64,000 bases of DNA from Amphiscolops sp. MND2022 (lineage: Eukaryota): positions 69,628,001 through 69,692,000 of the forward strand of contig OZ076409.1 of the NCBI GenBank assembly GCA_964187785.1, written 5' to 3'. The notes below the pieces were generated by a model that did no database searches, was not told where the DNA came from, and saw only the letters and a list, made by a program, of their open reading frames with translations. Shown piece after piece: positions 18,001 to 64,000 of the stretch; within the stretch, counting starts at the first letter, position 1, and every line of letters begins with the position of its first letter. Both the position numbers and the translations under genes were made by a program.

Positions 18001-21000
18001 AAGAAACTTGCAATATGACCTGCAGAAAAATGCATTACCTTGAAAGATCTTGCAAGATGTTTGCAACTAATATTTTTTTCAGCCAAGGCTGTCATATCAA
18101 GGCATACAGCAGTAATACAACTTAATTCTGAAGAACTGTTTTCGATGGTTTTTGGGTACCTAGAGTGTGTGTCGTAATTACTGTTACCATTCAAGGAGTT
18201 TCCACTTTTTTTTTCATTTTGGACGAGTTGTTTTCGACATTTTGTTTTTGAAGAATTTATTCGATGAGTTATCCTTGAAGTTTTTCAGAATACTCAGTAG
18301 ATTGAAATTTTGTTTGAATGGATTTTGAAATTTGTTCCACTTTTCTCGACTCAAATGGGACACCTCTAAAACTTTGATTGATAGGTAGGGGTACACGAAG
18401 CGTTCTGGACCGGGGAGGAAGTTATATGCTGGGAGCCCCCAGACCAGAAGTTCTACCTCTTCCCAAAAATATCCATCTCACTGTTAGATAAAGACTCCAC
18501 AGATGAGACCCCCAAGTATTTCACCATTACCATGATTCCAGAAGTAAGTAAATGCTTCACCCATTTTCTCTCAAAACTTCCTCTAGTCGAACGCTGCAAG
18601 TTTTGTAGGTTTTGTAAAATTTTATGTATTTTTTATATCGCCTTCAGGTGGAATTTGCCAATTTTACAAGAATCTTGTTAGCGATAGCACACACTTTCAT
18701 TTTGACTGACCCAACTTTTTGACCTAACAATACGTACGAAATTGAAACTTCTTTCTAAATAAAATGTTTCGACTAATCACATTTGAGATATCAATCTTAT
18801 GCTGTTAAAATTACTAGTCAACTTTAATCCCCTTCGGCTATAATTCTTATCAACGTCTCTAACCCGCGGTAAAACACCCATGATTTTTCAAATGAGCTCA
18901 AAACGATCAATAACTTTATGCACTGAGGAGCTAAACATGTGATCAACAGTCGGTTTTTTAGCAATACCTGGGGCCGGTAATTTTCACAGACGACACTTTG
19001 GCTTCTGACTCAAAGTGCTACAGATTCTCTATCAGTCCCTCCGATGACGGTAAGTTCAGACTAATGACGTCACATTAATTACGTAACACTGTGAGATCAT
19101 TTGAATTCACGAGTTTGTCACATCAACTGGTTTTTAGATTTTGAAATAAAAACTGGTTAGATTTCTTACGATTGTTGGTGATTCTTGCTTTCCAAGTGGT
19201 TTTAAGATGTGATTGGATAACGAGTAGAAATATTCTTCGCTCAAATGGAAGTTCTTTCAACTGTTCGTCCGTGTGTATTCTATGCTTCGACATAGGTTAT
19301 GACGTATTTGGGCTCAACTGCACTTTTGTTTCACTTTTCGTTTCTAACTGCACTTTACTGAACAACGCAGTAGGTTCATTTCCAATCCCAATTTTGGACG
19401 GAGTCGGAAAAACAGCAAGTCTTCAATATGAATTATGAAAAATTATAGTCCGAAAGTTACTAATATTGAAGTTATTCTCAAAGAATTTTCGGTGAATAGC
19501 AAAAAATAGTTGCTGCCTATAAGGATATGAATCTGAGTTTTCTCGACTTCTCTATAATTCATTATTTTTTCTACTTTGAAGAATACAAGGTCCATGTAAA
19601 AAAATCGATGCTTTTTCCTCGAATGGAAATCGAATGGAAATCAAAGAATCCGAGAAGACTTGTTCATCCTCTGAAACACTTATGTAACTAACAGAATAAG
19701 TCATTTTCAGGCACGATCTTAGGCTCTTCCTTCATGGAGGGGTTCTACGTGAAGTTTGACAGAAGCAACTCCCAGATAGGGTTCGCCCTCTCGAAGTGCA
19801 CACGTTTCGCGGAAGTTGATTCCCCTCCAGGGGTGTCTGGAGTTTTCGAACTCAAAGAAGAGGATGTCGGCACCAACTATAACCCCCCTTTCTTGCTGAA
19901 GGCAGGCAGACTTCTAGAAACTGGAAGCTCAAAAAGGTTCTGCAAAACCATGAGTTATCCGTACTGACAACCCAGGGCAACCCGCCGGTGGCCACCGCAC
20001 TTCCCATTGCAGTCCCACTGGTGACCACCGCGGTGGCCATGACACATTTTCTTATCTCACAGGTGGTTCACCGGTGGCCTGCACAAAATGTGTCATTACT
20101 GGAAAAACCACTGGAATAAGATCTAAAATTACCGAAAAACCACTGGAATAAGATCTAAAATCACTGAAAAACCACTGGTATAAAATCTGAAGTTTCCGAA
20201 AAAGCCACTGGTATGTCTAAAACAACCGAAAAAACCCACTGGAATAAGATCTAAAATCACCAAAAAAAAACTGGAATAGGATCTGAACTCCCTAGATAGC
20301 CAGTGGAAAATGTTCTTTCGGACAAAATCTGAAACTGCAAACAGAGTTTACAGATACTTCAGAACCGGTTCTGATAATTTTCCCATCTTTGCTTGGCTCA
20401 CTGGTGGCCATCGGTTGTCCATCGAATGCCACTGGTATGTTAACATGGGTTGTCAGTACGGGATGCTTCTTCCGTTTAAGGCCTTGAAACAGAACAGCTC
20501 AACGTTGAATGTCAAAAGTTTCGATAATGATGCCCCAAGTTAAAAAATTTCCGCCCGCATTGCAACAAAGAAGAAGACAAAAATGAAATCAAGAAGAAAC
20601 AAAATGTTCAAAAAACAGTAAAGACGAATCATGGTCGGTTGTACATGTTTAAAGTACCATTACCCTTCAATAAATTTTGACCACCAGTTAGTGATAAAAC
20701 AAATTACTTGGTTGTCAACAAAATACTGAGGCCATTGTTAGTCAGTGTTATTTAACGAAGTAGTTTTTGTATTTGCATCGGTTTTGTAAGAGGGCGAATA
20801 ACTAAAAATGTTTTGAGAATAACGCCTAAAGTCTAAAGGCGTCTAAAGGTTTTGAGAGTAACATCTAAATTTCAATGCATTAAGATTGGAAATGAACATG
20901 ACTGAGCATAGCATGACTTGGCTTTAGACGTTATTCCTCAGAATAACCTAGTTTTGTCACTAACAGAGGAGCCAAATTTCACTGAAAGCTAAATGAAAAA

Positions 21001-28009: not shown

Positions 28010-28232
28010 CCATCTTGGTATCCTCTGGTTTGTATGATTGCAGCGCCAAATTTCAGCTGAAACAATGATGCGAGAATTTGGCATTCAAGTCGACTATTAT
28101 GGATTAGGCAATTTCCTGCAGATGGTTGATTCGACCTGCCGGTGGAAGAAACGCAGGGACACGTATGCTTACCACTGATTATCTAGCACCGCTTTTTGTG
28201 AAGCTCAGTTGGACTACTGATGACTCGGTGAC

Positions 28233-29164
28233 TGTGAGAACGAGTCACGTTCGTGTTAATAACGGTGTTGAGACCGCTACATTCGGTCGTCGGTGTTGAT
28301 ATTTTCTCGGTAAGGGCTAACACAATGTTTGTTAATTCGCTGATTTGTTTATTCATCTCCATAAAACGTTGATCAACGGAAGTTGAGCTAGAATTTTGTC
28401 TAACATTGATTAAATCTCCATTCTCGAATTCATTCATCTGGTTTCTAGATAAAGTGTTAGGAAAACTATATTCACTTTCGTTGTCACTATTCTGTTCCAT
28501 TCCGCTGGAACATGCAGCATAACTATCTACGTTTTGAGATCTGGTATTGACCATCTTTGAATCTTCGAAAGGAATTGTTGTTTTTGAAGGTTTATTGATT
28601 TTAATAGGAAATATGAATAATCAAGTTTCGACTAAGTCAATGAGGTAAGCAACGCTACGTTAGGCTGTGTAAAACTTCGTACTGCTGATACTTCAACTCT
28701 TGTCGCAAATTTCACTGCAGTTGGTCACGTGACCGCATTGGCCAATAGTATTGCGCTATTGATTAGGTGTTAATTGGTGCGTCCTGCTGGTAGCAACGTA
28801 AATGGTGTTTTGTACAAAAGGTAGCACCAATATGTTACCATGGTTACATGAATCATCTATCATTTGCGTTGGTTGATACAAATTGCGTCTATGATGGTGC
28901 ACTACCAACGTTATATATGATACTACATTTTACTGATGAAATTAAATATGGTGAAAGCACTTGTACGAAGCGTGTAATGAGTAAATGATGTCAACGTTTA
29001 CAATTCGTTTTTTATTTTAGGAAGTAATAATAATGATGGGATAGGCCTGTCATTGTTCAATGGTAATTTATGGTTATTGAAATATCAAGAGTATTATATT
29101 TAACTGAATTTTTTAAATGTTTAGATTGTTTTTTATCAGTTTCATTCATGCTTCCGGCATGACA
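28233..29164 (-). repeat. 3' LTR (932 bp)
   Basis: Near-identical copy of 42741-43671, preceded by the PPT on the - strand. Confidence 0.96.
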
Positions 29165-29177
29165 CTCCCCCTCTTTT
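29165..29177 (-). other. Polypurine tract
   Basis: AAAAGAGGGGGAG abuts the TGT start of the 3' LTR. Confidence 0.9.
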
Positions 29178-30198
29178 AAAGAAAAGGCGAAGTGTAGGGG
29201 TCTTCGGAAATCTGGTAGCGGGAAGGTGAGGTAAATGTGGTAGCTTCACTTATGCAGTAAGTATTGGCTGTTAAATCTTCCTACGAGGGTGATTTGGCTG
29301 GTGTAGTGACCTCAACTACTTTTGGACTGTCCGTTACGGATGATGTCATAGCAACCACGTCGGTATTGATGAGTTGCATTGATGGCTTTGAGTACTCGGC
29401 TTGTTTGGGACCAATTGTTACTTCGATTCGGTACAGCAATTGAGAGGAAAAGAATGAGTTTAGCGTAACGAGTGAACCACTTCGGTAAATAGTAATTGTA
29501 GAGTCGGTGTGGCGAGAGTAGCCACGTCATCCAATTGTGCGCTTCGTTTGTAGTGAGAGTTTAAGAAAGAATGAATTTGCCGGAAATTAGTTGAACGTGG
29601 CAGCGTGATATAATTACTCGGCTCATTCTGTAACTGTTCGGAAGTAAATGTAGTGGAACATCGTACGCTTTGTCAACAAATCTTCGTCGGTGCTAAATAC
29701 GAGAGTAGAAGTAAGCTTGGTTACGGTTGATTCAGTTACTGATTGAAGTTGTTATTATCCAGTTAGCGATATACCAGGTGGATGTGATTTGACTAGCGGT
29801 AAATCGGTTCAGTGAATGCTGTCTGCATCTAGGTTACTCTGCGTGGAAAACCTCAATTGCAGCGTAGTAAGACTTCCGAATTTGGCATTTTGTTTTCTTG
29901 TTTTTCTCTTTTTCCCCTTCTTTTCTTTAGTTTTGAGTAGGATCCAGCGATCTTTAGTTTTTCGAACGCAACCGTTCTTTGAGTTCGAATTTTTTCCTAA
30001 TGAATTAATTTCGAGTAAATTCGGTTGAAATTTCTCTTTGTGATATTCCGGTGTCTTGTGAACACGGAGGGTGTGGGTGATCAGACCACATCTCGTATTG
30101 TCAAAGACGCTGAAGCCTGGTAGATCGCGAATTCTACAGTTATAGATCCTTGTTGTCTCGTTTGCCATTTGTTGTTCGTGATTAATTCCATTACTTGG

Positions 30199-33100
30199 AT
30201 GTTATCCCCTGAGTTGTCTGAAGAAGAAGTTGCATCGATTGTGATAGCCGCGGAAGGCGCGCTAGCTGAGATGTCAAATTTGGAGCAATTATCAGATGAA
30301 GAAGGTTTCCAAGCCTCAGTTGATACGTTGTTGGAAGGAGAGACACCATCTGTGTGCTGCCAGTTTGCTCAGCGTGTGACTTCGTCTAATGTAGAGGCTG
30401 CTACTACTTTGTTGGAGATAGCTCTCTCCAGTGAATTCCGTAAGTAAATCCGTAGTTATCGTTTTTCCTTCTTTTGGCTACTGAGACGGTCTTTCAACGT
30501 GTTTGTTGTTGTGTGCTTTGTAGTTAGGGCTAAACTAGTCAAGGTAATTGAAATGTTTGTTGCATTGGTATTTGTGTACTGTAGTTACCAACGTCTTGAC
30601 TAAAAGGACTTCCCTGGAACTATTACCTTGGGTAGACTTCTGGGCATTGCTCATGGTACTCATAGGTTAGATTGTACCATGTATGTTGCAGAATCTTTGA
30701 GTCTGACCGATATCGTCGCCGCTCTACGACGAATGCTTCAACAGAATGAGCCTCCAGTAGTTGCATCTCCCGCGAGTGCCGTCGAGACTGGGCTCCGGAA
30801 TTATGTATACAGCCAAACTGGTAAGTCTGTTCGCTAACTGGTTCGTTATTGTAACGATGGTGTTATATGATCGTTACTGCTCCGTACGGCGTGTCGGTTG
30901 TTTATGGTTGGCTTCGAGATGCACTCTCGTTTACACGATGTGTAGTACTCTGCGTTGTTATCTTTTGGTTGGGATGTTTCCAGGTACAGCGTTGGGTGAC
31001 TTGTTAACTCTAGACGACGTCGTTGCTGCTATCGCTCGACTGCAAAAGGAGTTGTCCGGCGTGGTTAAGGCCACCATCGAATCCACTCTTGGTCAGCTCG
31101 GGACAGTTGGGGCAATGGCTGTGGATGAGTTTGTTGGTCAACTGACTGCAGCAGTTTCCCGTTTAGTCCCTGCTAGTGGCTTGAAAGCAACCGTGCCTGG
31201 GGAGGATGCCCCCCTCATCTCGTCATCATCATCTGTGGGTGTTGCGCCAGTTTAAGGTGATGCTCAAAAAGACTTGTCAGTCGTAAGCCGGACGGCATCG
31301 ATGGTTCCTTCCATTTTTGGAGAGGGAACCGTAGCAGGATCCTCCAGTGCAGGGAAAGTGGCTGCTGCTAAACCTGGTAAGAATCTCAAAAAGATCATGG
31401 GCGGGGTTTTAGTGAACAATAATGTTAAGATTATCAAGAGACAAGACTAGATATATATGTTTTTTTTTGTTTTTGTTTTTTTTGTTTTTTGTGTATATGT
31501 ATATGGGACTATTTAACGCGTTGTGTGTTTGCGTTCTAGCTCGTGCTCGGAAGATCAAGACGCTCAAGCCGTCTTACTTTGTTTCTGGCGTCGTGGGGAC
31601 CTTCGTTGGGTTCCCCCGGAACAAGCGTGTGATTGACGGTTACGCTCGCTGTTTACTTTGTCGTGCGGATTTGAGCATTGCAGGACGTGGTCTGTCGTCG
31701 TTATGGGATCACTGGAAAGGAGTTGAACACACCCGATTGGAGCAAAAGTACAGGATTATGACACACAGGCCATTGCTGGACAAGTCTTGCAGACTAGTAT
31801 CTGCAGACGAAGATAGACGGATCAGACGTGCTCGTCTGACCGAACCGCCGGTCTTTCTAGAGTCTGTGCTGAAGTTAACTGTGGAGGAGCGAATAGCTAT
31901 TGAGGAGGCAGAGGCTGAAGAAGGCGCGCGTCCCCAATTGCAGGACGAAAGTGTGAATTACTTGTGGCTGAGTAATTTCGTCTCAAGTTTTCTGACTGTG
32001 ACGTCCTTTGATGGGGTGCTCCGGTCACTGGACTCATGGAGGGACTGTATGGCCAACGAACTTCGTTTTGAGTGCCGTACTCTGACCTACTCTCGTTGTC
32101 AGGTAAAAATTGGATTTTGCAGTCATTATTAAGTTGTACTGGCTACTTAGGTAACTTGCTAGTCACGTGGTTGTTATCGGTGCATTGTAACGCTTTTCGG
32201 GTACGGGTGTTGTGCCACGTCATCCCAGTTCTTGCGTGTCTCAAAGACAGAACTCAATTGAAGACGATTGCGGTGGAAGGTGACGTACATGTTGGGCGGG
32301 CGTTGGCTGCAGTGGTTTCGCCTAAGACTCCTCTCGTGGTGGGGTTGATTACGCAGCGGTCAGTGTTCAACGAGGTACAAAAACAGTTTCTCGCAGAGTT
32401 CGCGGGTCTAGATCCTCTCAGTGTCCTGGAATACTTTCGTGTGAGGCTGATGTCCGTTGCTCAAGAGGGTTTCTTAGACCGTTTGCCGTTATTGCAGCGG
32501 GTTAGTAAAAAAACCCCCTTTTTTTGTTTTTTCTTTTTTTTGTATTTGGGTCATGGCATTTGCGTAGGTTTTCGATTGTTTGGCTCTGGTAAAAAGGTAG
32601 ATCGTGTTCTTGTTTTGTAGTATATTCGACTTGGTGGAGATGACGTGTCCCAACTTGCACTGGTTTGCGCAGAAGTGGTGGACTATTGGAATGATTTGGC
32701 GCTGTACTTTGGTACTCATAGACCGGGAGTGACGTCGGAACTGCGTCCGATTACTCCACTAGAAAGTCAGGTGTTCGAGGATGCACTGATTCGGCCTCGT
32801 TTTGCTGTGCTGCGCTTAGTGCTAGATTTGAGTGAGTATGGGTTTATATGCTGTTGATCGGATACTCATTTGAGTACATGTGTAGCTGTAATTTTGTATG
32901 TTGAATATGGTCCAAAATTAGGTTAAGTGGGGACGTATGGAGCTAAAATTTCGCGTGTACAGTTTGGTGTGTAACCCATTGGTGTTGTGTTTTAGTGGTT
33001 AAGCACTGCCCTAGTTTGTGTAGACGTGGACGCGATTATGGAATTGTCTCGGAACGGGAACTGGCTCACCTTTTGCGTGGACTAATGAAGTTTATCTATC

Positions 33101-34359
33101 CGGCTCACAGTATTCCAGCGGAGTACGATATCGCTGCCTTGTTGAAAAATGTGGACCGGGAGTATGCCGACGTAGACTCTAACATGTACAGATTACATTT
33201 CGGGCAGTACTTCCGTTTTGACATCAGCACTCAACTGCCTTTCATTTACAAATCTGTCCAGAAAATGTTAGTCGGTATATGTCGTGGATTGAGCGGATTG
33301 TGGCAGCGTACGTGGCCCCAGCATTTGAGCTTGACTCCATTTGATCCGGTTCTCATTCATAGTGGGTCGGATGACCGCTGTGTCGACTCCTTAGTAGCAA
33401 CTTGTGCTGTGTTGACTGCTCATGGGCTTGTGGGACTAGATGATGGCGAAGTAGTTCAACAACAATATCGCGAAGTCACCCAATTTTTCAAGAGACGCTG
33501 GGCCTCTACTGCGGAAGAACTACCAGTAGTGGAGGACATTTTCGCGTTGTGGATGTCGTATCCTCACTGGGAGCGATGCGAACAATTGCGGCGGCAGGTC
33601 ATCGATCTGGCTTTCAGTGCAGTGGCCACTAGTTCGTACCTGGCGGATTTTGTGGATGACGTCGGCGGAGCTTTGGATCCTGATGAACTGGCTTCAAGTG
33701 TGCATTTCGTCCGGAGTTGGTTCAGTCAGTCTTTTGTGGGGAAATCGCGTCGTCAACTACGTGGTTTGTTGCGTGTCATTGAGACAACTGACATGCAAGT
33801 GTCTCGCTTAAACGATAGCGTTCGCGCTAAACCGTGGGATCAACTCCTCAAAGTTGGACTGGATCAAACGTTGTCCTTGTGTGTATCCGTGTTGGACAAT
33901 GGTCCTGATACTGCAGTCGTTCCGGTGGTGGATGAGTATCGTTCGACAGTACTTGCGCAGTTGAACGTTATGGCGGTAATGGCAACGAGCCCTACCCGTG
34001 TAGCGACGGGTTCTAAAGCGATGCCATCCAGTACAGACGCGAAATCCAAACGGCCCCGCAGTCAGTCTGATGTAAAGTTGAAGACTCCCAAGAAGACGCC
34101 TAACGTGGCTACGGTTGGAACCTCTAAATCTACTGGGCGAACGAGAGGCGTTGTGGTCAGTCGACGAGGTCATAGTGCAGCGGTGAAGTCTGGAAAAGGA
34201 CAGCGAACTGGCGCGAAACCGCATGCATCTAAGAGACTTGTATTATCTACGGCGGCATGTGAGGCTTCAGATCATGGTAGTCAATCGTCCAGTGACGATG
34301 TGCCACTGTCTACTACTAAGCGGACGAAGCAGGTCATCCGTGATTCACCGGATGAATAG
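30199..34359 (+). CDS. Spliced antisense accessory gene inside the retrotransposon; about 1066-aa protein with a BED-like zinc finger (this copy has one nonsense codon)
   Basis: Model: 30199-30439, 30692-30820, 30984-31376, 31540-32102, about 32201-32500, 32621-32831, 32996-34359 (3201 nt, phases compatible). Donors are gtaagt, gtaagt, gtaaga, gtaaaa, gttagt and gtgagt; acceptors are T-rich. There is an in-frame TAA at 31253-31255, and the acceptor at 32200 reads ttttcgg (presumed AG>GG change). The 5' end is tentative. Confidence 0.72.
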
Positions 34360-36508
34360 TTGTCAACTAGACATGCTGTTGAGCGTGTATTTGTCAGTTT
34401 GTTGTTTGCTAAAATGATTTGTACCATCCTGAATGTTTTGCTTCTGAACGTGTAGTTTGTATATTTTTTTGTTGATTTATCGCAGGAGCGTTTTTATGTG
34501 TATCGGGAGTCACAAGGTGCTAGTTGCGTTATCCGGTAACCTCCTTCCCTACTTGTTGAACTTGTGGTTATTTTACATGTTTTAGAACGTTGAGCTTATT
34601 TTTCAGTTTTCATTTCGATGATATTTGTTTCATTCTGCATACTTGTTGTGTTGTTCTTTTTTCATGATTTGTAGTATTCAGTTGTTGTTGGTCCATGACC
34701 TTTGACTAAGTTTTGTTTTACTTCCAATGACCTTAGTACAGTTGAATTTACATGTTGCCTACGTTATACAAATTTTTTACCCTAATTTGCATGTAAACTT
34801 AGGTAGCTGGTTTCAAAATGTTAGAGCGATAGACTCAGCTTCGCAAGTCATTCAAGTTCTAGTAGAGTAGTCGCCGAGGTAACTACCATTGAAAAGCTCT
34901 CACTCACCAAGTGCCATCCTCGTGTCAGCGTTATTCATGATAATGGCCTACATATGACAGAGGTGGAAGCTTGGTGGGTGGGTGGAGTCGCTCAACTCCT
35001 ACAGATGATTTGAACTTTTGAGTAGCTGCTTTTATAGTGCTTTAGTTGGTTGTTTGACAGGTGTTTACCAACTTAGGTGTCATTCCAATCTGTCAGTTCA
35101 TGTCGAGTTTTACATATATTTATTTCTCATGTAGCGTTATTCTTGACGTCGTCATCGTTGATGTGTGTCATGCGACGTCATCACTCGTGTCGTGTGTCAA
35201 GTGTTAACGTCAATCTTAATGGTAGATGGGTTTCCCCATAGCCATTAAACTTTTTGACAAGGGATGGTGAGTTCCATCCCTTGTTACGATTTTTCGGTGA
35301 TGTAGTGATTAAGCCTGCATGTTTTTTGTTGTTCTGTCCTTCCCGCCGCGAGGCGAAGCCTACGCATCAACAGTAGGAACGAAAGTGTCATGGCCTGAAT
35401 TCGATGCAAAGATGACGACTGCGTTTTACTGTCCTAGGAAAAGTTTTATATGTTGTTCATTGGATTGGGAAGGTTATTTGCCGTCGCAAAAACCCACACA
35501 AAACTAACACCGAATCCACTTGCTAAAGAGCAAGCTTCATCTGAATGTTTGTACAACCACACAGACGCGCATTTGACGACGCACCCACACAGCCGAACCA
35601 CATCATGATTTCCTGAGCGGAAGTGCGGGACTAGATTTTGGCGGCGTAACTTAACTAAGGCAGCTATCTCTTTTGCATGTTCGGTTGTGTGCTGTTACTT
35701 TTGCTAATTTTGGTTTATTACTGTCGTCATAAGGTTGGTAAGTACAGAATTGTAAAGCAATTCCTTTGAAAGTGTGTGGTTGGGATTTTCTGTGAATTGC
35801 ATAAATTAGCAACTCATTTGCATGCGTTTTACATGTACTTAATATTTTCCGGTTAACGTGATGTGGTGTGTATGACTGAATTGCATGTATTTACTTTTGC
35901 GCTCAGATGTCTCGGTAGAGAGTAACAATATACTCTGCCGGTAAACTCAAGTATGTTGGACAGTGAGTATCAGTCGTCACTGAATGGCGTAAAGTAATCC
36001 ATACAATTTAAAGGTATGACTGATGCATGTGGTGATGTCAACTACCTTCAATTAATTGCATGTACATTTTTTCTTTATTTACGGTGAAAATGACGTGGTA
36101 TGTGTGGCAGCGTTAGGTGTTTCTTTTCGTTCATACTGCTGGTGGAATAGGGTGAGACGTTGAATAACACGTAGCGACGCAGTGTGCGGAACTGCGTAAC
36201 GGCTTTCTCGCCTGTTGTTCGTTAGCCGGTTAAGGGCGGAAATATGCTCTGGCCGGTAATTTTGAAAACTGATGAGTTTGAGTGTTAGGCGTTCATTATG
36301 GTATCATTCAGTATTGTTTTTTCTTTGTGTCTACTTGATTTAATTTACATGTATGTGTTACGAGATTCTCTCTTTTTTGTTTTTTTTGTAGAGAGTGTAG
36401 GACATTCCCATTTAATTTTTGCATGTGATATCACTTCTCGTGCCGATACGAGGCGAAGCCTACGAGTTGTCAGCAGGAGAGAACACAGATTTTATGTTTG
36501 CATGCATT

Positions 36509-39500
36509 TTAGTCGGTGGATTTGTCTTGCATGAATTTTAGCAGAGCCGGTTTGACTCGGAGTTCGTGAACTAAGAAGTTTCGGTAGGTTTTCGGTTGCG
36601 GTTCGGTTCGGAGGTTGTACCGTGTTGCGTTGTTAGGCGACGTTGTGTGGTCATGCTCATTATGAACTGTCGTTGTATGTTCAGTCACAGGTTCGTTTGT
36701 TTCAGTATCAGGTTCGTTGTTGGTGTCGTAATGAACAACTGAATTGTCAGGCGGTTGTTCGCAGGTTTCAGGTGAGCTCTCAGGAATTGGTTGCGTCAGC
36801 GTATGATCGTTCAATTTCCGTACATGCTCATAATAGATAATGCCGTGTTCATTATTGATTTCTTCTTGATCGGTTGTTTCCGGTGCCGGTTCCGCATACA
36901 AATGCTGAGGCATGTGGTCATTGAAGAGCGCTTGATCATCGGCCGCATCTGGGTCAGCGAACAAGCGATTTGAGTCTTCTTCAATGTCCGGTATTGGTGC
37001 GTTCGGTGTGAAAGGACGTAGTCGCATCCTATGCACGCACTGTGTTCGGAAGTTCCGACCTTCCTGATTATGTAGTTAAAGTTTGTCAGTACTTTAATTA
37101 CTTTGAAGGGACCTTCCCATTTGAAATCATGGAAGTTAATCTTGTCGGACTGCGTTGTGAGTTTAGGATTAAGCAGAAATGTGTAGTCGTTGACCTTCAA
37201 TGGTAACGCTTGGGCTTTACGGTCGTAGTACTTTTTGTACTTGTGGTATGCTTGCAGTATGTTATCATTGACTTGTTGGTATTTGCCGTTCACCTGGTCA
37301 ACTAATCTTGTTATATCAGTTTCCGTGGTTTCATATTTCAGAGGGTTACCGAATTTGAGGTCTAACGCGTTAAACGGAACTCTGCCGTGGAAGACTTCGC
37401 TCGGAGTGCACTTGAGTGATTGATGGTAGGTTGTGTTATGAGCCATTACTGCAAGATTAACGTACCTGTCCCATTGGGGGGAGTCGACAGAAATGTTAAT
37501 CTTCAGAATTTGTTTCAGTCTTTGGTGGGAACGCTCCACCATCCCTATGGTTTGGGCATGCTTTACAGTAGCGTGATCAATTTTGATTCCGGCAGTTTTC
37601 ATGATTTCGGTCATGATGTTGGATGTGAAAGCCGTGCCTTTGTCGGTGATAATTGTCTTCGGGACGTAGGCGTGTTGGGTGAATATTTGCATGAGCGCTT
37701 TTACAACCGAGTTAGTGTCTGGTTTCCGTATAGGTACAGCGAACAAATACCGTGAGAAGTAGTCGCACGCCGTCAGGATGTGCGTATATCCGTTTGAGTT
37801 AGGTAGTTCACCTACTAAATCGATTTCCAGTACGTCTTCCGGGCCGTTACAGGGGTCGTAGATTTTTTCCAGAGGAGGCATTAGTCGTCTTGGGTTAACA
37901 GGTTTTGCTTTGATGCACTCAATACAATTACTTACGTACTTTGACACGTGTTCACTCAGGCTTGGTATGTAGTAACGCTTACGGAGTTCTACCAACATTT
38001 TTGATGCCCCAGGGTGTCCCTGCATGGGGTCGCCATGCATTGTCCTGATTATGGGCATGGTAGTTTCTGGAGGTACTACGATTTGTTTAAGTAGAATTCC
38101 GCCAGTGTTATCAAAAAAGTTCCTGTACAGTACCTTGTTGACTACTTCAAGTCTTTTTTTGTTTTTTACCAGTTTTTGAAAAAAGGAGCTAGTAAAGTTA
38201 ACGTGGTTTGGTAGTGGTTCGTTGTCCATTAAAACGCGGACCATTTTTTGGACGTCTTGGTTACCTAACTGATCTTGGACGATTTGTGAATCCCCTTGCG
38301 GGCATACCTGATTTACCGGGTTAAGGTGGTGACGTCTGGTAAACCTCGTCAGTATGATGGAAGGGGTGTCTCCTGCCAGAACAGGTTCGAGGTGTCGGCT
38401 GATGATCTGAATCATCTTGAGACGTTCGTCGTCATGTGTTTGAAGGTTGTTCGCCATTGAGTTTAGTAGAGTCCGCATCTTGGTGAAGTCGTCTGCTGGA
38501 CCGGTGGTTTCAGACTGGTGTGTAGTGGGTATCGCTGCATCGGGTTGTTGTTGGTCTGGGTCGTAGTCTTCTTCGTCCTCGTCCTGTTTTGGGGTTTTGG
38601 CCGCAAGATCTATTTCGATGTGGTGGACTGGAATCTGGTCATTCAATTTCAAGTGAATTCTGTCTTCAGGGTTAATGTCTAATCGAGACAGGTAATCCGC
38701 CGCTGGGTTCTCGACTCCAGGGACGTGGGCGAGAACAAAGTCAAATTGAAGTGCTTGGTCACAATGGTTCCATAGTTTGGGTGGTATTCGTTTTGACTGG
38801 AAGAAGCGGGTCAGAGCCTTGTTATCTGTCATCACAATTGTGGGTTTTTTGACACCCCACAGTATGTGAGCAAATTCGTCGAAGGCGAAGTGCATTGCGA
38901 AGAATACTTTAGCATACATGGTCAATGACATTTGACCTTCCGTGAATCGTTGTGAGCCGAATGCTACAGGGGCGTACGTCTTCTTCTGTCCATCATTGGC
39001 TTCGGTGTAGTCCTCAATGAGGAGCACGTACCCTGCTGCGTGTTCACTCGCATCGCACATGATGACCAGTTGTTTGTCTGGTAGTGGTAGTCGCAGAGAT
39101 AGTTTTGCAGCTCGTGCCAGGTTCTGATTAATATCAAAAATTGCGTCCTTGTGAACCTGCGTCAGGGTGAACTTGATGTCTTTCTGTAGTAGTTTGTACA
39201 GAGGAACAAGTTTTTCTGCCAACATCGGTATTTACTGTCTGTAGAATTGTACGAATCCGATGTAGCGTTGTAGTGATTTGACTGACGTTGTTGTTTTCAA
39301 GTTGTTGGGGAATTTGTCGATCTTGTCCTCGAGTGGCGCAATCCCTTTGGTAGTGATGATTCTACCTAAGAACTCGATCTTCGGGTGACCAAAGGCGCAT
39401 TTTGACATCGACAGCTTTAGACCTGCCTTCTGAATCTGCTGGAAAACTGCTTCGATGTTAATTATCAGTTCGTCCACATTGTTGGCAGCAATCCCAATGT

Positions 39501-41473
39501 CGTCGACGTATTGGGCACATTTGTCTGCTTCTACCAGTGCATCTAAGTACTCTCGAATTGTACTGTTGAATGCAGACAAAGACCTATTCAACCCTTGCGC
39601 GAGTCGGAGGTAAGCAAAGGTTCTGCTGCCAAAATTGAATGCCAGAAGTTGTATTGATTGTTCGTCGGCCATTTGGAGGCAGTGGTAAGCTTGCGAACAG
39701 TCAAGCTTGCAAAAGTACCTTTTGCCAGCCATATGCATCGGCAATGGCTGCATCGGCAATGGTCGTTACTGGGTGGTTGTGGTTCTTGTAGTCATTTTTG
39801 AGGAGGTGGTTGATCCGCCTCAAATCGACTAGTATCCGAAGTTTCCCGTTAGGATTTCGTTGTGCGAAAATTGGGGAGGAATATTTACTGTATGGTAACG
39901 TCGTGATAATCCCGTACTCCTGCATCAGTGCGAGTTCGTCCAGCAGATCATCTTTCAGATTGGTTGGAGTAGGTAGACTCTGGGCGTACACGGGATCATC
40001 GTGTTTTGGGGTCAGCTTGATCTTGAAATCGGTGTTGATGCCGATATCAAGACGATGTCTAGCTAATATCGTGTGATATTTGACGAGCAGTTCTTCGATC
40101 CTCTGTTGCTCATGCTCAGTGAGGATCGAGTCGTCCCAGCTGAAATTTTTGAGGAATGTTTGGCGTTGTTCGTCATCGCATGTCGGGTTGAGTTTTTCAG
40201 CTTCTCGGAGTTTGATGAGTTCGTCGTAGATACGTCTTTCTATTTTATTCAGCTTGTCAGGATCGTCACATGTTTCGGGCGTCGGGTACCATCTTTTATC
40301 ATTTGTGGCGCTTAGATCCTGGAATAATTGGTTGATCACATTAGCCGCTTCATCAGGGAATTTAGTGATCAACGCCAGCTGCTCGTTGGTCATTGGCTGG
40401 ATGTTTCTGGCTTGGTTTGGCGTAAGTATTCGGAAGACTGCGATTGTACTGCTCTGAGGTATTGTAACTGCGTGGTCCATGTGGTTGGTAATTTGGACGT
40501 GTGTCTGTTGGTCCTTGATTTCAGACATTGATGGTGACACTAGCAATTCAGTTTTTCGTTCAAAGGCTGGGAACGCCTCTATTGTGCCTGTCACTATTCC
40601 GATGTCCTTGTCCGTTGTAACAGTCACAAATATTTGTTGTCCGGGCGAGATGGTTGTTTTTTGGGTTGTTCTGAGTTCCAACATCTGCAGTTTGAATTTC
40701 CCGTTTGGCGGTTTTAGTTGGAGGGTTATTTCTGGGAATCGTACAATGTTATTTGCAAGGTCTAGCGTGACAGAGTATTTTTTAAAGAAGGAAATTCCGA
40801 TGAGGATGTTTCCCATTGTTGGTAGGATCATGAATGTCTCTTCGAATATTTTTCCCCCAATGAAAAATCGAAGAAGCACTTGTTTTCTCACCGGAACGAT
40901 ATTTCCGTTGGCTATTTGGACTTTGAAGTCCGGTGCTGGATATTCTTCCAACTGGGCTGCTGGGTGGGCTTGTAGGATTCGACGTAGCTCGTTTTCAGAC
41001 ATCGCGCTCTGGATTGCTCCAGTGTCCAGTAGCTCTTGATTTTCATACTCACGGAATTGAAGAGGGACGTAGAGCATCTTGTTTCTTCTGTCTAACTGGA
41101 GTGTAGCGCTTAATGGTCTGATGTTTGATGGCTTCGGTTGGTGCCCCTGTTTGGTATTGTCATCCAGTTCATTCGGTTTTTGTTGTGGGTTTCTAGTTCT
41201 GGTCGGGTTGACCCTCTCGCGTTGGTGTGGCCTGGCTGCAGTCTCTTTCGGAATGCAGCCCTTCGTTGTACAATTGGGGTTGTCGTCTATGAGAGGGAGT
41301 ATGTGGTAGTTATTTGTCGAGACTTTGCGTACATAGTATTTTGTTGATAGTTTAGTCTGTTTATCAGGACGCTGCCAACATCCTGTCGTTGTAGTTTTCG
41401 AGTAGTAGTGAGTTGGAGTTGGTTTTTTGGTGCGCGCACTTTCTGTTTGGTTGGACTGAGGATGACATGGCAT
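36509..41473 (-). pseudogene. pol: Pol (protease, RT, RNase H, integrase) with three lesions
   Basis: Protease LLDTGA; RT ILVDLRRIN, KLDCSQAYH and YVDD; RNase H CDASEHAAG and TDNKAL; integrase HHCC plus IDLVG/TDKGT/VERSH. Lesions: a frameshift near 39740 (14-bp duplication CCATTGCCGATGCA), an in-frame TAA at 39232-39234 and a frameshift near 37050. Confidence 0.93.
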
Positions 41474-43062
41474 TACAAGTTTTTTGAATTCGTATCGTAT
41501 TCATCGTTGTAGTCCATGTCGTAGCAGTCGTTGGTTTCTTCTGGTTGGGTGGTCTGGCTTGTCGGTTGCGTGACTTGGTAGGTTGGTTGGTAGTTGTTTT
41601 GTGACTGTTTGAATTCACGGCGGAACTCTCGGTTTTCATTGGTGGATTGTTTGGCATATGGTACGTTTCGGTAAGCCGATGCTCCTGATACCCTGTCTCT
41701 GCAATCCCGTGCTGAATGTCCGATCCTGCCACAAATTTGGCATACTAATTTGGAGTTGTATCGTGGTTTTTCGGTTTCTTGTTGTTGGGCATTGTTGTTT
41801 CCATGTTGGGGACGTTGTTGTGATTTCTTCGTTATTCCGTTGGCTTCGTCCCTGAGGCGTTTACGGCATTCAATCCACTTGTGGCCTAGTATGTTGCAGT
41901 ATCTGCAATTTCCTTCGAATCTTCGTTTGACTTCTCTTGTTGGGTTCTTCTCGGTGTTTTTTGGGTTGTGGGCTGGCTGAGCGTTGTTTTGCTTTATTTG
42001 GTAGTTGTAGACCTGGTTAAGTGGCTGCATATCCGAGGTGCCGGGGAGCAGTTGTGCATATTGGCAACGGCGTTGTACAAACGTCTTGATTTCTTCAACC
42101 TTGGCATCGTGTTTGCCTGCCATGGCAAGTTCATTCTGAATCTGGATTGGTAGTTTGGCAAACAAGAATGTTTCGGCTATGTCATTGGCTTTATCTCCGT
42201 ATGCTTGTTTGGCAAGTTTCTTGTATCTAGTTAGGAAATCAGCAAATGATTCCTTTGTGGGGTCATACCTCATCTGATCGAATTTGTACTTCGATACTTC
42301 TTTGAGGTCTTCTTTCGCATACTCCTTGGTGAAAGCTTGCAGGACGTCTTGGAGTGTCGTTTCTGTCGTGATTTTTAGTGTTTGCCAGAATTCTATGGCT
42401 TCGTCTCTAAGCAAGCTTTGAAAATAGTTTAGCTTCTGCTCTTCTGTTAATTTGTTCATGTGTGGGCGGAGGTGGTTCTTCAGTAGGTGTTCGAATTCGT
42501 TGTACTTCTCTCGGTTTCCGCGGAAGAGAGGTACTTGAGTTTGGAGGATTTTGGGCTGTATTACTCCGTCGGTCATTGTTGTTCGTAGGTTGTGTATTTC
42601 GGTCAATACATCATCCATCTGAGGGTCATTGGTGGGTGGTGCACGATCTCTGTTTTGGTGAGTTGCAGGGTTTGGGAGGGTCCTGCGTGGTTGTTGGATA
42701 TTTGGAGTCGGATTTGGGTTCGTGGAGACTCCTGTCACCATGTCAGAACGAGTCACGTTCGTGTTAATAACGGCGTTGAGACCGCTACATTCGGTCGTCG
42801 GTGTTGATATTTTCTCGGTAAGGGCTAACACAATGTTTGTTAATTCGCTGATTTGTTTATTCATCTCCATAAAACGTTGATCAACGGAAGTTGAGCTAGA
42901 ATTTTGTCTAACATTGATTAAATCTCCATTCTCGAATTCATTCATCTGGTTTCTAGATAAAGTGTTAGGAAAACTATATTCGCTTTCGTTGTCACTATTC
43001 TGTTCCATTCCGCTGGAACATGCAGCATAACTATCTACGTTTTGAGATCTGGTATTGACCAT
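41473..43062 (-). CDS. gag: Gag polyprotein, 529 aa
   Basis: Uninterrupted ORF; capsid-like region (VPLFRGNREKYNEFE...LRDEAIEFW) and two CCHC knuckles (CRYCNILGHKWIEC, CQICGRIGHSARDC). Confidence 0.93.
   Translation of the reverse strand: MVNTRSQNVDSYAACSSGMEQNSDNESEYSFPNTLSRNQMNEFENGDLINVRQNSSSTSVDQRFMEMNKQISELTNIVLALTEKISTPTTECSGLNAVINTNVTRSDMVTGVSTNPNPTPNIQQPRRTLPNPATHQNRDRAPPTNDPQMDDVLTEIHNLRTTMTDGVIQPKILQTQVPLFRGNREKYNEFEHLLKNHLRPHMNKLTEEQKLNYFQSLLRDEAIEFWQTLKITTETTLQDVLQAFTKEYAKEDLKEVSKYKFDQMRYDPTKESFADFLTRYKKLAKQAYGDKANDIAETFLFAKLPIQIQNELAMAGKHDAKVEEIKTFVQRRCQYAQLLPGTSDMQPLNQVYNYQIKQNNAQPAHNPKNTEKNPTREVKRRFEGNCRYCNILGHKWIECRKRLRDEANGITKKSQQRPQHGNNNAQQQETEKPRYNSKLVCQICGRIGHSARDCRDRVSGASAYRNVPYAKQSTNENREFRREFKQSQNNYQPTYQVTQPTSQTTQPEETNDCYDMDYNDEYDTNSKNL
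42728..42740 (-). other. Primer binding site (tRNA-Leu-like, tentative)
   Basis: TGGTGACAGGAGT immediately after the 5' LTR; one mismatch from the TGGTGTCAGGAGT expected for a typical animal tRNA-Leu(CAG) 3' end. Confidence 0.7.
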
Positions 43063-43671
43063 CTTTGAATCTTCGAAAGGAATTGTTGTTTTGAAGGTTT
43101 ATTGATTTTAATAGGAAATATGAATAATCAAGTTTCGACTAAGTCAATGAGGTAAGCAACGCTACGTTAGGCTGTGTAAAACTTCGTACTGCTGATACTT
43201 CAACTCTTGTCTCAAATTTCACTGCAGTTGGTCACGTGACCGCATTGGCCAATAGTATTGCGCTATTGATTAGGTGTTAATTGGTGCGTCCTGCTGGTAG
43301 CAACGTAAATGGTGTTTTGTACAAAAGGTAGCACCAATATGTTACCATGGTTACATGAATCATCTATCATTTGCGTTGGTTGATACAAATTGCGTCTATG
43401 ATGGTGCACTACCAACGTTATATATGATACTACATTTTACTGATGAAATTAAATATGGTGAAAGCACTTGTACGAAGCGTGTAATGAGTAAATGATGTCA
43501 ACGTTTACAATTCGTTTTTTATTTTAGGAAGTAATAATAATGATGGGATAGGCCCGTCATTGTTCAATGGTAATTTATGGTTATTGAAATATCAAGAGTA
43601 TTATATTTAACTGAGTTTTTTAAATGTTTAGATTGTTTTTTATCAGTTTCATTCATGCTTCCGGCATGACA
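42741..43671 (-). repeat. 5' LTR (931 bp)
   Basis: Reads TGTCA...TGACA on the - strand and is followed directly by the PBS. It differs from the 3' LTR by about 6 substitutions and one 1-bp indel (counted by eye). Confidence 0.96.
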
Positions 43672-46600
43672 GTGACACAAAGTTCAAAAACATCCCCATC
43701 AGAGTAAAACTCGAACCCTCTGTGTAGCAGTTGTTAGACGTACATATCAGACACCAGCGTGGAAATCGAGTGGGTTTGGAACTGATAATACCACCATGAA
43801 AAAAATGCAATCCACTATCCGGTATATGGAAAACTGCTGGAATTATTTTGGAAGGCCCAAGTCGGCGCACCGCTCCCGACTCAAAAAGGGCAAAGAAACA
43901 TTTCCAAAAACCCGTTCGTGTAACTAGAGGTTTCTCTCTATTTGAAAACGTTTGGTGAAATAGTACCAAACAACTTCTAACGGTGATACTTTGCTACTGT
44001 CTAGCCTTGTAATTTGGTCCTAGAAGTTTTAGGCTTTCTGCACGACAATATGAAACTGCCTATGAAGTTGAACAAATTGAACAAAAAAGAGGACACTACG
44101 ATTTGAAGCTGGAGAAAAAACTGATCAATGTATAACAGTCTTGCATTTTTTCCATAAAACGACTACCAATAACTCCAGTGTATAACAAAGGACCTCATTT
44201 TGTCTAGGTAAAATGAATTCTAGGTTTTCTCTATCAATGATATGTTTCTATTTTTGATGTTTTCCCAACCAAAAACTTCGATTTTGAGAAAACTCGACTG
44301 AAAACTGACTAGCTTCAGATCTATCTGACAACTGAATTGTTTCGAAAAATATAACTGTAGTAAAATTGTAGTGAAAAATGTTTTGCAAAAATTCCAACAA
44401 CTTCATATCAGAATACAAACAAGAGACAAAGCTTACCACTGTAATTAGTCAACCACAGCAACCGTTTTCAAATAGGAATGGAATTTTTTAAAGATCAAAA
44501 ATGTCTTATATTTTACTTTTATTATATAACTTCTTTTATACGTCAACAAAACGTCACTAAACGGTATTCACAATTTTATCACTGATCAACAATTCACAGC
44601 AATTCAGAACTATTTTTCAAAGACTATTCTTAGACTTGCTGCCGAAAAGTGAATATTGAAAGATACATAACTTCTGTTGATGGTGTTTCATCCTGCAACA
44701 TCGTAATATCGCTTTCTAGAAAAGTGCGCTCAGTCCTAGAATCCAAAATGTAGCAGAACAAACGTGGTTACCATATGTTGGGGATGACTTAAGAAAACAC
44801 TTCTTGCTCACAGGAACAGATTCGAAGACACAGTTCGGATGATTCACAAAACATGACCAGCGACTTGGCAAACAATTGAACCACAGTTTCCATTTTATTG
44901 ATCTAATTTGTTCTCTTCACTCAAGTGCAAACTGCCCCATTTCTAAGCTAGAACACTCACACTATATTTGAATCGAGTGCTATTTCTGTCGAAAGTCTCC
45001 ACTTACCACATGACGTTAGTATAACACGATGGTCGATGGTATCGGGGGACCATTTCAACTTAACAGCGGTCCCCGATTCAATTAAATTTCTTGCTCAAAA
45101 GCTGTCTTTTATCTAATTACAGCTAATTTCATTACATGTTCACTGTTTTAATGTCTAGGTGTCAAACAATGGAGTTCTGTCTTTAATGTAGACGTTTTAG
45201 TACCTAACAAGATTGGAATAAAAGACCGATGCCACATTCTGACTTCGGGTGAGTTCATTTTGAACGTTTTTCGACCTTTTGACATTTTCGAGATGTGATT
45301 TAAATGAAAACACCTTTTTTGCAGAAATTACAAGAAAAATGACTGTTTTAGAAATTTTAAAGTTGAATCATTAGACAAAACTGAATTTATCCTTTTATCC
45401 ACGCAAAGATATCATAAATGTTTTCAGAGAAAAGTTTTTCTCATTAGTTGGGCCACCTAGAGAAGCTCATTTGAGAATATAATCTCGAGTAATTGGGAGA
45501 ATTACATTTCCATCTCGAGTTGACGTTTATAGACTTGAAAGCAAATCACAAAACTGGAATGGAACATCAAAACAAAATCATTTGTCATCAAGTTAATATA
45601 AGTAAGAAAGTTAACAATTTTTTTTTCGAACCGAAGAAATTTACATTCAATTACTTACTTATTTTATTGAATGTCATTTTCTTCGGTTCGAAAAAAAAGT
45701 GTTAACTTCGTTTAAACATGAAAAAACACAAAAAAACTTCAAGTCAAGGAATCCGCTCCTGACAGTTAACTGGCCAACTAAACTGATCCAGCGGAACACT
45801 AAAAAAATGCTCTTAATCGTGATGTTCCATATTGAGATACCGCTCGATTAAATCGCTCTATAAACTTTTTTTTATCGTCGTTGTTATTCTACTGTAACGG
45901 AAAGCATCCAGCGCTCAAAAAAGCGAGCAGTGAGAAAACGTATCGGCAAAAAATCCCGCGGAATATTCCGTTTTCGGGCTTTTTTTATGAATGATGTGAA
46001 AACACGTCGAAAAACAATCCAAAACGCTTAAACGTGCTTCCAAAAACCGCACATTTAAGAAGAGGATCACTACCAACACATTCGTTACTCAGAAGGATTT
46101 AACAAACATCAAAGCTAATACTTACTCTGCTCAAAATGTTTATGCATTTAAAAAAAGAGTAGGAAATTTGCTAATAATAATTTACATGCTGCTCAAAGAA
46201 ACTGAAATAAATTTTAAAAAAACTTCTAACAAGACTCCGGCTGAGCAGTGGGATGTTTCTTTTCGATCTGTTTTTCGCTACGACATATTCTCGAGTCTCG
46301 AGCGTAGCTGACGAACTTCGATTTTGAGGACAAGATTGGAACAATTGAAAACATTGAGATCATTTTTGATTCTATTCATTCGCATTCCTCAAAACATTGA
46401 TCAAAATTTTTAATGAACAAAATTAAATAATCTAAGGTTTCTGATTCCTTTCAAACATTCTGTTCTGATACATGTATATTATAGTGGAACCCTGTTGATT
46501 TTCACAATCACGAATGCTTTTGAAACGTGTATTAAATTTGCATTGAATGGGCAAAAACGAAACGTATTTAACCCTTTGTTACTTTCTGGGAATGTTAGGC

Positions 46601-63776: not shown

Positions 63777-64000
63777 TTTGAGCTTTGAGATTCAAAATTA
63801 TTGGACTTGTTGTGTGGACTAGTTACAATTCAGTTGACTTCGCTATTTAAACTATTAAAACGTTGCAAGTAATTATCACATTTCATAGTGTGAAAGATTA
63901 TTGTTAGTTGCTGGACCCTTTTTATAGCTTTACTAATTACCATAAAGGCTTTCATAATTAGCACGGTTGAGAGCAATTAGGTGAAAGTGTGAGAGATTGA

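Follow-up and report, generated by a model that had tools for sequence, protein, structure and literature searches.

A young Ty3/gypsy retrotransposon of Amphiscolops sp. MND2022 carries, antisense to its own coding regions, a multi-exon gene whose product very probably derives from a hAT transposase. The DNA analysed here, called the window, is a stretch of 64,000 nucleotides of contig OZ076409.1 (positions 69,628,001 to 69,692,000), and all coordinates below are counted within it. An initial annotation had tentatively described the product of this gene, the cargo, as a repurposed hAT scaffold captured and retained by an RNA transposon. Its observation is confirmed and its interpretation largely supported: the finger, exon 7 and exon 8 are placed in hAT order by profile-profile comparison, and the cargo is co-located and co-divergent with the gag of a retrotransposon family. 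The best overall explanation, which we moderately favor, is that the hAT-derived cargo would act as a regulator serving its own retrotransposon.

The retrotransposon and its antisense gene

The element occupies positions 28233-43671, with pol, gag and both LTRs on the minus strand, and is flanked by the same 5-mer, GTGAC, at 28228..28232 and 43672..43676. The 3' LTR (28233..29164, 932 bp, TG...CA) and the 5' LTR (42741..43671, 931 bp) differ by six mismatches and one gap (99.2% identity). A polypurine tract, read from the sequence, adjoins the 3' LTR (29165..29177, minus strand), and a primer-binding site beginning with TGG follows right after the 5' LTR (42729..42740, minus strand). The gag gene (41473..43062) encodes 529 aa with zinc knuckles from an ATG within the 5' LTR, while pol (36509..41473) matches the Pfam families RVT_1, RT_RNaseH, rve and Integrase_H2C2 in the Ty3/gypsy order of protease, reverse transcriptase, RNase H and integrase. 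The TG..CA LTRs, short target duplication, primer-binding site, polypurine tract, gag and pol together identify a Ty3/gypsy element. Compared by tblastn with the 1,545-aa relative P0437, the pol of this copy is disrupted by one stop and two frame changes. No arrays of repeated short motifs stood out in the LTR, and no hAT remnants were found among the 138 other ORFs of the window.

The cargo gene lies on the plus strand between pol and the 3' LTR (30199-34359), with eight predicted exons and about 1,100 codons. The initial annotation had given its extent as 31540..33720, a segment that falls in exons 5-8; the peptides quoted there are all present on the plus strand (the zinc finger at 31650-31730, WMSYPHW at 33550-33570, KSKRPR at 34042-34059, KRTK at 34318-34329), although the gene itself is larger. 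Its seven predicted introns measure 63-164 nt, have consistent phases and, in six of seven cases, GT-AG ends, and cargo homology stops at the same splice sites in the relatives inspected. Splicing is thus predicted from boundaries, phases and relatives. Exon 1 (30199..30439), with an ATG and a donor GTAAGT in consistent phase, encodes an acidic 80-aa segment (16 D/E, one R, no K) showing no hAT derivation as far as tested and no Pfam family match. Exon 2 (30524..30543, 20 nt) is predicted from AG/GT boundaries and phase only and is the least certain exon of the model; exon 3 (30607..30820) is predicted from the same kind of evidence, and a Pfam search with it returned no family. Exon 4 (30984..31376) would be a low-complexity linker, and in this copy it contains an in-frame stop codon at 31253-31255. 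Exon 5 (31540..32102), with 130 relatives, encodes a BED-type finger, a charged linker and two helices, and in the relatives inspected its donor comes after the same ..CQ codons.

Intron 5 survives as a remnant (32103..32215). An internal deletion ending near 32215/32216 took its acceptor along with ~68 codons from the beginning of exon 6: a tblastn search with the relative P0485 matches the window at 31527-32111 and 32216-32512 only, and the close relatives P0468 and P0474 part from the window sequence directly after 32215. A start of exon 6 at 32201 with a non-canonical acceptor was rejected, as relatives show intron sequence beside the deletion. The remaining part of exon 6 (32216..32500) is 54-59% identical to its relatives and encodes a strand, on which the second acidic site lies (32273-32284), and the beginning of an insertion-domain-like region. 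With a stop codon and an internal deletion, the window copy of the cargo is broken.

Exon 7 (32621..32831) is followed by the long exon 8, whose residues 1-270 (32996..33810) are all-helical and include the W..YP..R..L segment and the place of the hAT motif ERxF, which here reads YLADF (33637-33651). The rest of exon 8 (33811..34359, stop at 34357-34359) is a family-specific helical extension and basic tail. The tail is composed of 17% S, 12% T, 11% K and 9% R, with a net charge of +16 over 127 aa, and holds the conserved islands SPxR, QxxV and G-R-R-T-G-G-K-P, the last of which reads QRTGAKP (34201-34221) in the window copy. Among the basic motifs proposed earlier, K351 and R354 of KSKRPR reach 70% conservation, whereas KRTK does not.

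Relationship of the cargo to hAT transposases

The CxxC-x16-H-x5-H zinc finger belongs to a class that hAT transposases carry at their N-terminus, and the six frames of the window contain the pattern a single time. Shuffling 29165-36500 200 times gave, on average, 0.0 strict and 0.07 loose matches. The four ligands of the finger are kept in 105/108, 106/111, 104/111 and 103/112 aligned relatives, and the full pattern in 88/108, so that the Cys/His ligands, whose conservation the initial annotation had made a test of its reading, are indeed conserved among homologs. Pfam zf-BED matches the relatives weakly (E<=0.5 in 17/72, best E 0.006). When the finger was compared with 69 distinct hAT fingers at 28 columns unused for selection, the two matched, and none of 100,000 permutations was as good. 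ESM Atlas neighbors of the finger are BED-type with a top score of 0.88, which serves as a lead only. The cargo thus has an N-terminal BED-type CCHH/CCHC finger as hAT transposases do, while its putative DNA-reading positions differ (G-R-G..S/N in the cargo versus H-G-G..D in hAT fingers). This BED-type finger was probably kept from a hAT transposase and would bind DNA.

For the region beyond the finger, we compared profiles of exons 5-8 with a profile of reference loci confirmed as hATs by Dimer_Tnp_hAT in 5/7 ORFs and by Hermes at E 7e-13. The exon 8 profile falls on hAT positions 369-615, with 0/300 column shuffles and 1/300 block shuffles scoring as high, and decoy profiles of pol and gag score below 0. 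Placed separately, 20 near rows (7/300 shuffles) and 17 far rows (13/300) start at the same hAT position. A 270-column exon 8 profile reaches the hAT C-terminus, aligning to 369-639 (score 27.9, Z 4.2, 0/1,000 block shuffles, reversed 10.4); this range and the joint positional criteria were picked after the alignments had been viewed. Exon 7 aligns to 302-368, the helix after RW, and thus ends where exon 8 begins at 369 (chance 0.0065), though alone it is not significant (32/300 block shuffles score as high). The placement of exon 6 is weak, its first 100 columns being no better than shuffles (238/300); exons 6 and 7 nevertheless fall in hAT order upstream of exon 8. The two exon 5 helices sit where hAT transposases have an N-terminal dimerization domain, but the profile does not place them (86/300 shuffles, wrong position).

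Structure models, made for single exons, give pLDDT 80-90 for the exon 5 helices (135-152 and 156-171; mean for the exon 57) and mostly 77-91 across residues 21-200 of exon 8. A fold search with exon 5 ranked Hermes 8edg at the top without significance (E 0.86), and Foldseek with VIA-align listed no hAT for exon 8 (best Z 5.6), a region whose matching stretch in the reference hATs aligns poorly to Hermes itself. Pfam hAT families matched none of the window exons or relatives (0/38 and 0/30), HMM-to-sequence searches in both directions were not significant (best E 0.054 and 0.08), exons and profiles searched against PDB sequences yielded chance matches only, and ESM Atlas returned no usable match for exon 8. 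As weak evidence, no longer full-length relatives of exon 8 appeared among 3,326 candidates.

One might therefore argue that only the finger is hAT-related and that the helical rest resembles hAT transposases through its amphipathic helices. The absence of Pfam, HMM or fold matches for exon 8 fits this reading, as does hhalign, which gave the C-terminal part its highest score outside the finger but in the twilight zone (probability 4.5%, E 0.009). Run without context pseudocounts, hhalign placed the finger and no other part. Yet exon 8 outscores block shuffles, reversal and decoys, abuts exon 7, ends at the hAT C-terminus and starts at one hAT position in near and far subfamilies, and the finger-to-end spacing fits a hAT transposase. 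We regard a hAT origin of the finger alone as quite unlikely. A hAT origin of the whole scaffold is strongly favored by these alignments, short of proof because the Pfam, HMM and fold searches were empty.

The initial annotation had found neither an intact DDE triad nor CxxH, and both statements hold. Catalytic sites were assigned by profile alignment, in which the register of sites 1 and 2 is weak. Site 1 is H in relatives (R in P0216) and deleted in the window copy, where the region of the first catalytic aspartate is not visible because ~68 codons of exon 6 are missing; site 2 carries D or E, and site 3 varies (R in 15, V in 15 and E in 13 of 65 rows). The DDE triad of an RNase H-like core is therefore not intact, with sites 1 and 3 lost. 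CxxH after the second aspartate is a hAT motif, found also in the reference ORFs here, and is absent from the window exons and from the nine exon-6 rows covering the site. RW, a motif of the hAT insertion domain seen in the references and in Hermes, is absent at the aligned place in exon 7 from the window copy and P0140, the few rows available. ERxF is likewise absent from the window exon translations, and PF05699, the hAT C-terminal region, matches 0/38 and 0/30 cargo proteins, although a profile-level match to that region exists. As far as these alignments reach, the family has lost two of its three catalytic sites as well as CxxH and RW, in all subfamilies examined. The W...YP...L.L...SS resemblance to the hAT dimerization domain noted earlier stands in part: W185, Y188, P189, W191 and R193 are kept at 60-63/65, but the 'SS' of ATSS varies (of 65 rows, column 212 has G in 25 and S in 24, and column 213 has S in 23 and T in 14), and the 'L...SS' match is spurious.

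The cargo thus shares with hAT transposases (loci L018, L035, L047, L061 and L066, with Hermes as the solved relative) the class and register of the finger, the order of regions, the helical C-terminal half and the overall span. Unlike them, it lacks catalytic residues 1 and 3 as well as CxxH and RW, has N-terminal and C-terminal additions of ~290 and ~180 aa, and lies inside an LTR retrotransposon. No terminal inverted repeats with an 8-bp target duplication surround the gene, inverted pairs being at chance level.

Linkage to the gypsy family

A close cargo copy is present on 9/11 other contigs with a member of the gag cluster, and the gag cluster on 9/44 contigs with near cargo copies versus 0/99 with far ones (Fisher p 1.3e-5); linkage is judged here by pairing contigs through their length rather than from the DNA of other copies, and covers the close cargo copies. 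Identities of gag and exon 8 co-vary (Mantel rho 0.55, 162/5,040 permutations), while the same test for exon 5 is not significant (560/5,040). Long open frames persist in subfamilies with identities down to 37% and about 20%. These data support a cargo that travels with the gypsy family and has diversified to about 20% identity. They also bear on a passive hitchhiker, namely a decayed hAT nested in the retrotransposon and amplified without function. The window copy is broken and many relatives are fragments, as a hitchhiker would predict; however, pol of the same copy is also broken, every subfamily examined has lost the catalytic motifs yet preserved the zinc ligands and specific motifs, frames of at least 420 aa occur in 12/15, 9/15 and 8/15 of the members listed in three exon-8 clusters, and no terminal inverted repeats surround the gene. 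Such a hitchhiker is extremely unlikely. Outside the genome, 0/179 JGI metagenome stretches held a cargo relative, and viral contigs contained neither relatives of the reverse transcriptase nor the finger motif; a single viral-contig match (L001) was discarded as a phage stretch with a stop inside the match.

Proposed function and known systems

Beyond the anatomy, conservation, element linkage and catalytic motif loss established above, we propose that an ancestor of the Ty3/gypsy family acquired a hAT transposase gene, antisense, between pol and the 3' LTR, either from a DNA transposon directly or from a host copy already domesticated. Because the gene is antisense, its introns would stay unspliced in the genomic RNA of the element and survive reverse transcription. 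The protein would have lost its cutting activity together with catalytic sites 1 and 3, CxxH and RW, retained the finger and the whole helical scaffold, and acquired an acidic N-terminal segment and a basic tail bearing short conserved motifs. It would be translated from its own spliced antisense mRNA, for which the 3' LTR is a possible promoter source, enter the nucleus and bind a short DNA motif through its finger, probably as an oligomer. There it may recruit or divert chromatin factors on copies of the element that encodes it, raising expression or blocking silencing; intact relatives would provide the protein in trans for the broken window copy. Domesticated transposases usually retain DNA binding and lose catalysis, according to the relevant part of PMC10368747. 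Most probably, the cargo would serve the element as a DNA-binding regulator in the nucleus, and we put the chance that it regulates its own element at about even. In a more specific and tentative version, a Class I element domesticated a Class II transposase as a factor that acts sequence-specifically, either against silencing or as an activator: its BED finger would find the copies, the dead hAT scaffold would oligomerize there, and the tail motif R-R-T-G-G-K-P..K.L would mimic histone H3 (T11-K14 region), engaging or decoying chromatin enzymes, a domestication of one transposon by another that would have diversified along with a large radiation of retrotransposons.

A dead transposase that keeps finger and scaffold also has the anatomy expected of a dominant-negative. 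The cargo might thus be a repressor, limiting the copy number of its own element or poisoning active hATs to the benefit of the host, and antisense RNA may repress by itself, as discussed in part of PMC7264820. Yet the putative DNA-reading positions are unlike those of hAT fingers and the scaffold has diverged beyond the reach of HMMs, two points against its mixing with active hATs, and the gypsy family is abundant and young; we consider repression improbable. Alternatively, the protein could act at integration, tethering the pre-integration complex to DNA or chromatin sites or importing it to the nucleus. The finger and the basic tail with its conserved motifs would suit such a role, and plant antisense ORFs have been proposed in nuclear entry of the complex (PMC7264820, in part). 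The protein lies outside the Gag-Pol polyprotein, however, and would have to reach the particle in trans, and the evidence on insertion sites comes from a single one; this role is unlikely.

The regulator reading finds its closest parallel in antisense ORFs of plant Ty3/gypsy elements (Grande gene23, RIRE2, Retand TRP28/PF04195). As described in parts of PMC7264820 and PMC11963269, these are likewise antisense between pol and the 3' LTR, kept in most copies (for the cargo, the 9/11 contigs above) and predicted to encode nuclear DNA-binding regulators. They have no traced origin and are said to lack similarity to other TEs (PMC7264820), and TRP28 is reported from flowering plants only; the cargo, in contrast, has an origin probably traceable to a Class II transposase and seven predicted introns. 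Host-domesticated hATs (the ZBED family, DAYSLEEPER) keep the BED finger, usually lose catalysis and take regulatory roles (PMC10368747, PMC3499209, both in part), whereas here the domesticator is another transposon and the gene is multi-copy and mobile. VANC of VANDAL/MuDR, an element-encoded accessory factor of captured origin that acts on chromatin, goes back to MAIN-like proteins of the host and belongs to DNA transposons of plants (excerpts of PMC13547354); it is a model for the proposed function, with no homology claimed. Captured accessory genes of animal LTR elements (bdelloid ORF3 GDSL/DEDDy, planarian Burro) lie downstream of pol or are fused to the polyprotein (PMC5408684, PMC6431247, both in part) and encode enzymes, env-like proteins or apoptosis domains; 'transposase' occurs 0 times in the available portion of PMC5408684.

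Our literature search found no LTR element carrying a dead hAT transposase, although both components, an antisense accessory gene and an inactive hAT transposase, are already known separately. For decades LTR retrotransposons have been seen to carry antisense accessory genes, whose source and role PMC7264820 gives as unknown. Tracing the cargo, with moderate confidence, to a DNA transposase suggests that retrotransposons, like hosts, can domesticate transposases. Should it prove to be a targeting or anti-silencing factor, the cargo would be a counterpart of VANC beyond plant DNA transposons and may help explain the abundance of the family. The finger provides a handle, since its motif can be determined and sought on the element, so that the function of such genes becomes testable.

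The cargo gene and the element that carries it

The Ty3/gypsy element enclosing the cargo gene is 15.4 kb long and lies on the (-) strand. Its LTRs (28233-29164 and 42741-43671, (-) strand) have TG..CA ends and differ from each other by six mismatches and one gap. A GTGAC target duplication flanks the element on both sides, and the PBS and PPT are both in place. The gag has zinc knuckles and pol follows the order PR-RT-RH-IN; relative to a 1,545-aa relative, pol of the window copy is broken by one stop and two frame changes. The gag start lies about 320 bases within the 5' LTR (window 42729-43062 and 28186-28620); as a result the primer-binding site falls inside the reading frame of gag, and a gag start is present in each LTR. 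Both LTR regions also gave a weak DUF7243 match. An identical 16-mer occurs at 35349-35364 and again 1,100 bases further on at 36449-36464, within the non-coding stretch between cargo and pol, and is a candidate cis element or binding site; no motif array stood out when the LTR was scanned for one.

The cargo gene (30199-34359, (+) strand) has eight predicted exons and ~1,100 codons between the 3' LTR and the end of pol. The initial annotation had noted only 31540..33720, an interval that does belong to this gene but spans just exons 5-8. Exon phases are consistent, the predicted introns measure 63-164 nt, and homology to the relatives inspected ends at the same splice sites, which is indirect support for the predicted splicing. 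The window copy is broken: it has a stop codon at 31253-31255, and it has lost the intron-5 acceptor and ~68 codons of exon 6 to a deletion whose end lies near 32215. The missing part is visible in relatives that read through intron 5 (proteins P0479, P0482, P0485 and P0486), and tblastn of P0485 matches the window at 31527-32111 and 32216-32512 only. The 5' end of intron 4 (31377-31415) is conserved among copies just 72-78% identical in exon 5, with read-through into the intron start in three relatives (P0170, P0237, P0474); this stretch is a possible cis signal, perhaps one that acts on the genomic (minus) strand. By eye, exons 3 and 4 (30607-30820 and 30984-31100) share a similar helix, L-x-L-x-D-[IV]-V-A-A-[IL]-x-R, a sign that the N-terminal, non-hAT part may have undergone internal duplication.

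Searches found 66 relatives of exon 8 among 4,480 candidates (37-100% identity) and 130 of exon 5 among 353 (120 of them listed), all ENA proteins without names, most of them encoded on long contigs. When 1.84 billion representatives were searched with a profile, 187 matched; among the 150 listed, 22 that were read and 30 that were scanned are cargo family, down to ~20% identity. The very distant (~20%) exon-8 clusters P0322 and P0395 have long intact frames on short contigs of 0.8-4.7 kb, and may come from other elements, from another species or from host genes.

That an RNA transposon captured and retained the cargo, as first proposed, is supported by linkage, counted over up to 15 listed members per cluster with contigs matched by their length. 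Among members listed, a close cargo copy lies on the same contig for 9 of 11 other gag-cluster members, and gag of this family is on 9/44 close-cargo contigs vs 0/99 distant-cargo contigs (p 1.3e-5). Close cargo is on 4 of the 16 listed pol contigs. Gag identity co-varies with exon-8 identity (rho 0.55, 162/5,040 permutations); its co-variation with exon-5 identity was not significant (560/5,040). Judged from these related sequences, the cargo gene travels with this gypsy family.

Zinc finger and hAT-like scaffold

The proposed BED-like CxxC-x16-H-x5-H finger, a pattern found only once in the window, holds up among homologues: the four ligands are present in 105/108, 106/111, 104/111 and 103/112 rows, and the full pattern in 88/108. 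Pfam zf-BED matched 17 of 72 family members weakly and did not match the window's own finger; Atlas neighbours of the finger are BED-type, a lead only. For reference, metagenome contigs were scanned with a degenerate finger motif, giving at least 119 loci. The long ORFs at these loci encode hAT transposases that carry CxxH, RW and ERxF and match Hermes at E 7e-13, and PF05699 was found in five of seven ORFs tested, the other two ending before that region. Compared with 69 distinct hAT fingers over the 28 columns left free by the search motif, last histidine included, the cargo finger gave a match that 0/100,000 permutations equalled. Where reference hATs have H-G-G..D the cargo has G-R-G..S/N, so its DNA target motif may differ from theirs.

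For the remaining scaffold, PF05699, which the initial annotation had suggested looking for, was absent from the cargo family proteins searched; HMM-to-sequence searches between cargo and hAT gave best E values of 0.054 and 0.08, and fold searches with single-exon models gave no significant match. Profile-profile comparison used a hAT profile of 128 rows and 643 columns. Exon 8 (1-250) aligned to profile positions 369-615 with a score of 23.8, reached by 0/300 column shuffles and 1/300 block shuffles (3/300 shuffles in a repeat run); the reversed profile scored 10.2, and pol and gag decoys below 0. Four other parameter sets gave 0-7/150, and the near and far subfamilies taken separately gave 7/300 and 13/300, each starting at 369. 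With 270 columns, a range picked after the alignment had been seen, exon 8 extends to 639 of 643 (0/1,000 shuffles). With hhalign, E was 0.007-0.02 and the probability <=4.5%. Exon 7, not significant on its own (32/300), is placed at 302-368, adjoining the exon 8 start (chance 0.0065). Over its first 100 columns exon 6 falls at 127-231, across both aspartates, scoring no better than shuffles (238/300), and the exon-5 helices are misplaced. The joint order of placements arose in 46/200,000 draws under criteria fixed afterwards. This picture is weak but ordered, and it favours the hAT-scaffold interpretation in corrected form; the whole scaffold is very probably of hAT origin.

Loss of catalytic motifs and possible role

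As the initial reading had it, there is no intact DDE triad or CxxH in the aligned cargo. Catalytic site 1 carries H or R and site 2 carries D or E; neither CxxH nor RW is present, and Y-x-x-D-F, variable at the glutamate position, stands in the place of ERxF. In the proposed W...YP...SS segment, W..YP is conserved and 'SS' is not. The loss is common to all subfamilies examined, the most distant included, and so predates their radiation. No terminal inverted repeats bracketing the gene were found, which together with the lost motifs places the cargo, on sequence grounds, outside the active hAT transposases as a derivative.

The cargo retains its zinc ligands, its helical scaffold and the motifs in its tail and has lost catalysis, the same pattern as in domesticated transposases described as DNA-binding regulators that kept binding and lost catalysis (PMC10368747). 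Plant gypsy lineages commonly have antisense ORFs lying between pol and the 3' LTR, and the origin and function of these ORFs are described as unknown (PMC7264820, PMC11963269). Animal LTR elements are described as carrying enzymes and env-like genes (PMC5408684, PMC6431247, PMC6338049), and VANC as a captured accessory anti-silencing factor (PMC13547354). Full-text literature searches found no LTR element with a hAT-derived gene; an annotation may exist in Repbase, subscription journals or supplements.

The antisense orientation would let the cargo introns survive the RNA intermediate. Since the cargo moves with the element, the element is the simplest beneficiary, and given hAT origin there is roughly an even chance that the protein is a nuclear, sequence-specific factor promoting or protecting the element's copies. 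It might instead act in integration targeting, or as a repressor.

Tail islands and other features of the window

An island, G-R-R-T-G-G-K-P..K.L.L (window 34201-34221; relatives P0003-P0066), is conserved in the otherwise variable basic C-terminal tail and absent from the most distant subfamilies. RTGGxP occurs in 27 and TGGKP in 20 of 46 tails, against 0/9,200 shuffles, the rows being related and the counts not independent. A second island, QxxV at 34063-34074 (Q in 98% and V in 93% of 54 rows), has PIP-box-like spacing but lacks the aromatic residues. The first island is similar to TGGK in the tail of histone H3, compared by means of a published peptide (PMC7192584), and a PDB search with this motif gave no match; together with the acidic exon 1 it would fit a chromatin role, as leads only.

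Elsewhere in the window, FLYWCH and MULE transposase fragments (62394-63791, (-) strand) mark a Mutator-like DNA transposon remnant, which along with the short introns suggests that the host is probably an invertebrate animal. Further decayed gypsy RT/RNase H pieces lie with a 1.5-kb tandem duplication at 47179-47415 and 50585-56200. A pepsin-like aspartic protease host gene has exons at 9238-9510 and 19692-19964 ((+) strand), spread over ~10 kb. Inverted arrays of a ~16-bp unit at 3247-3799 form a foldback or MITE-like element.
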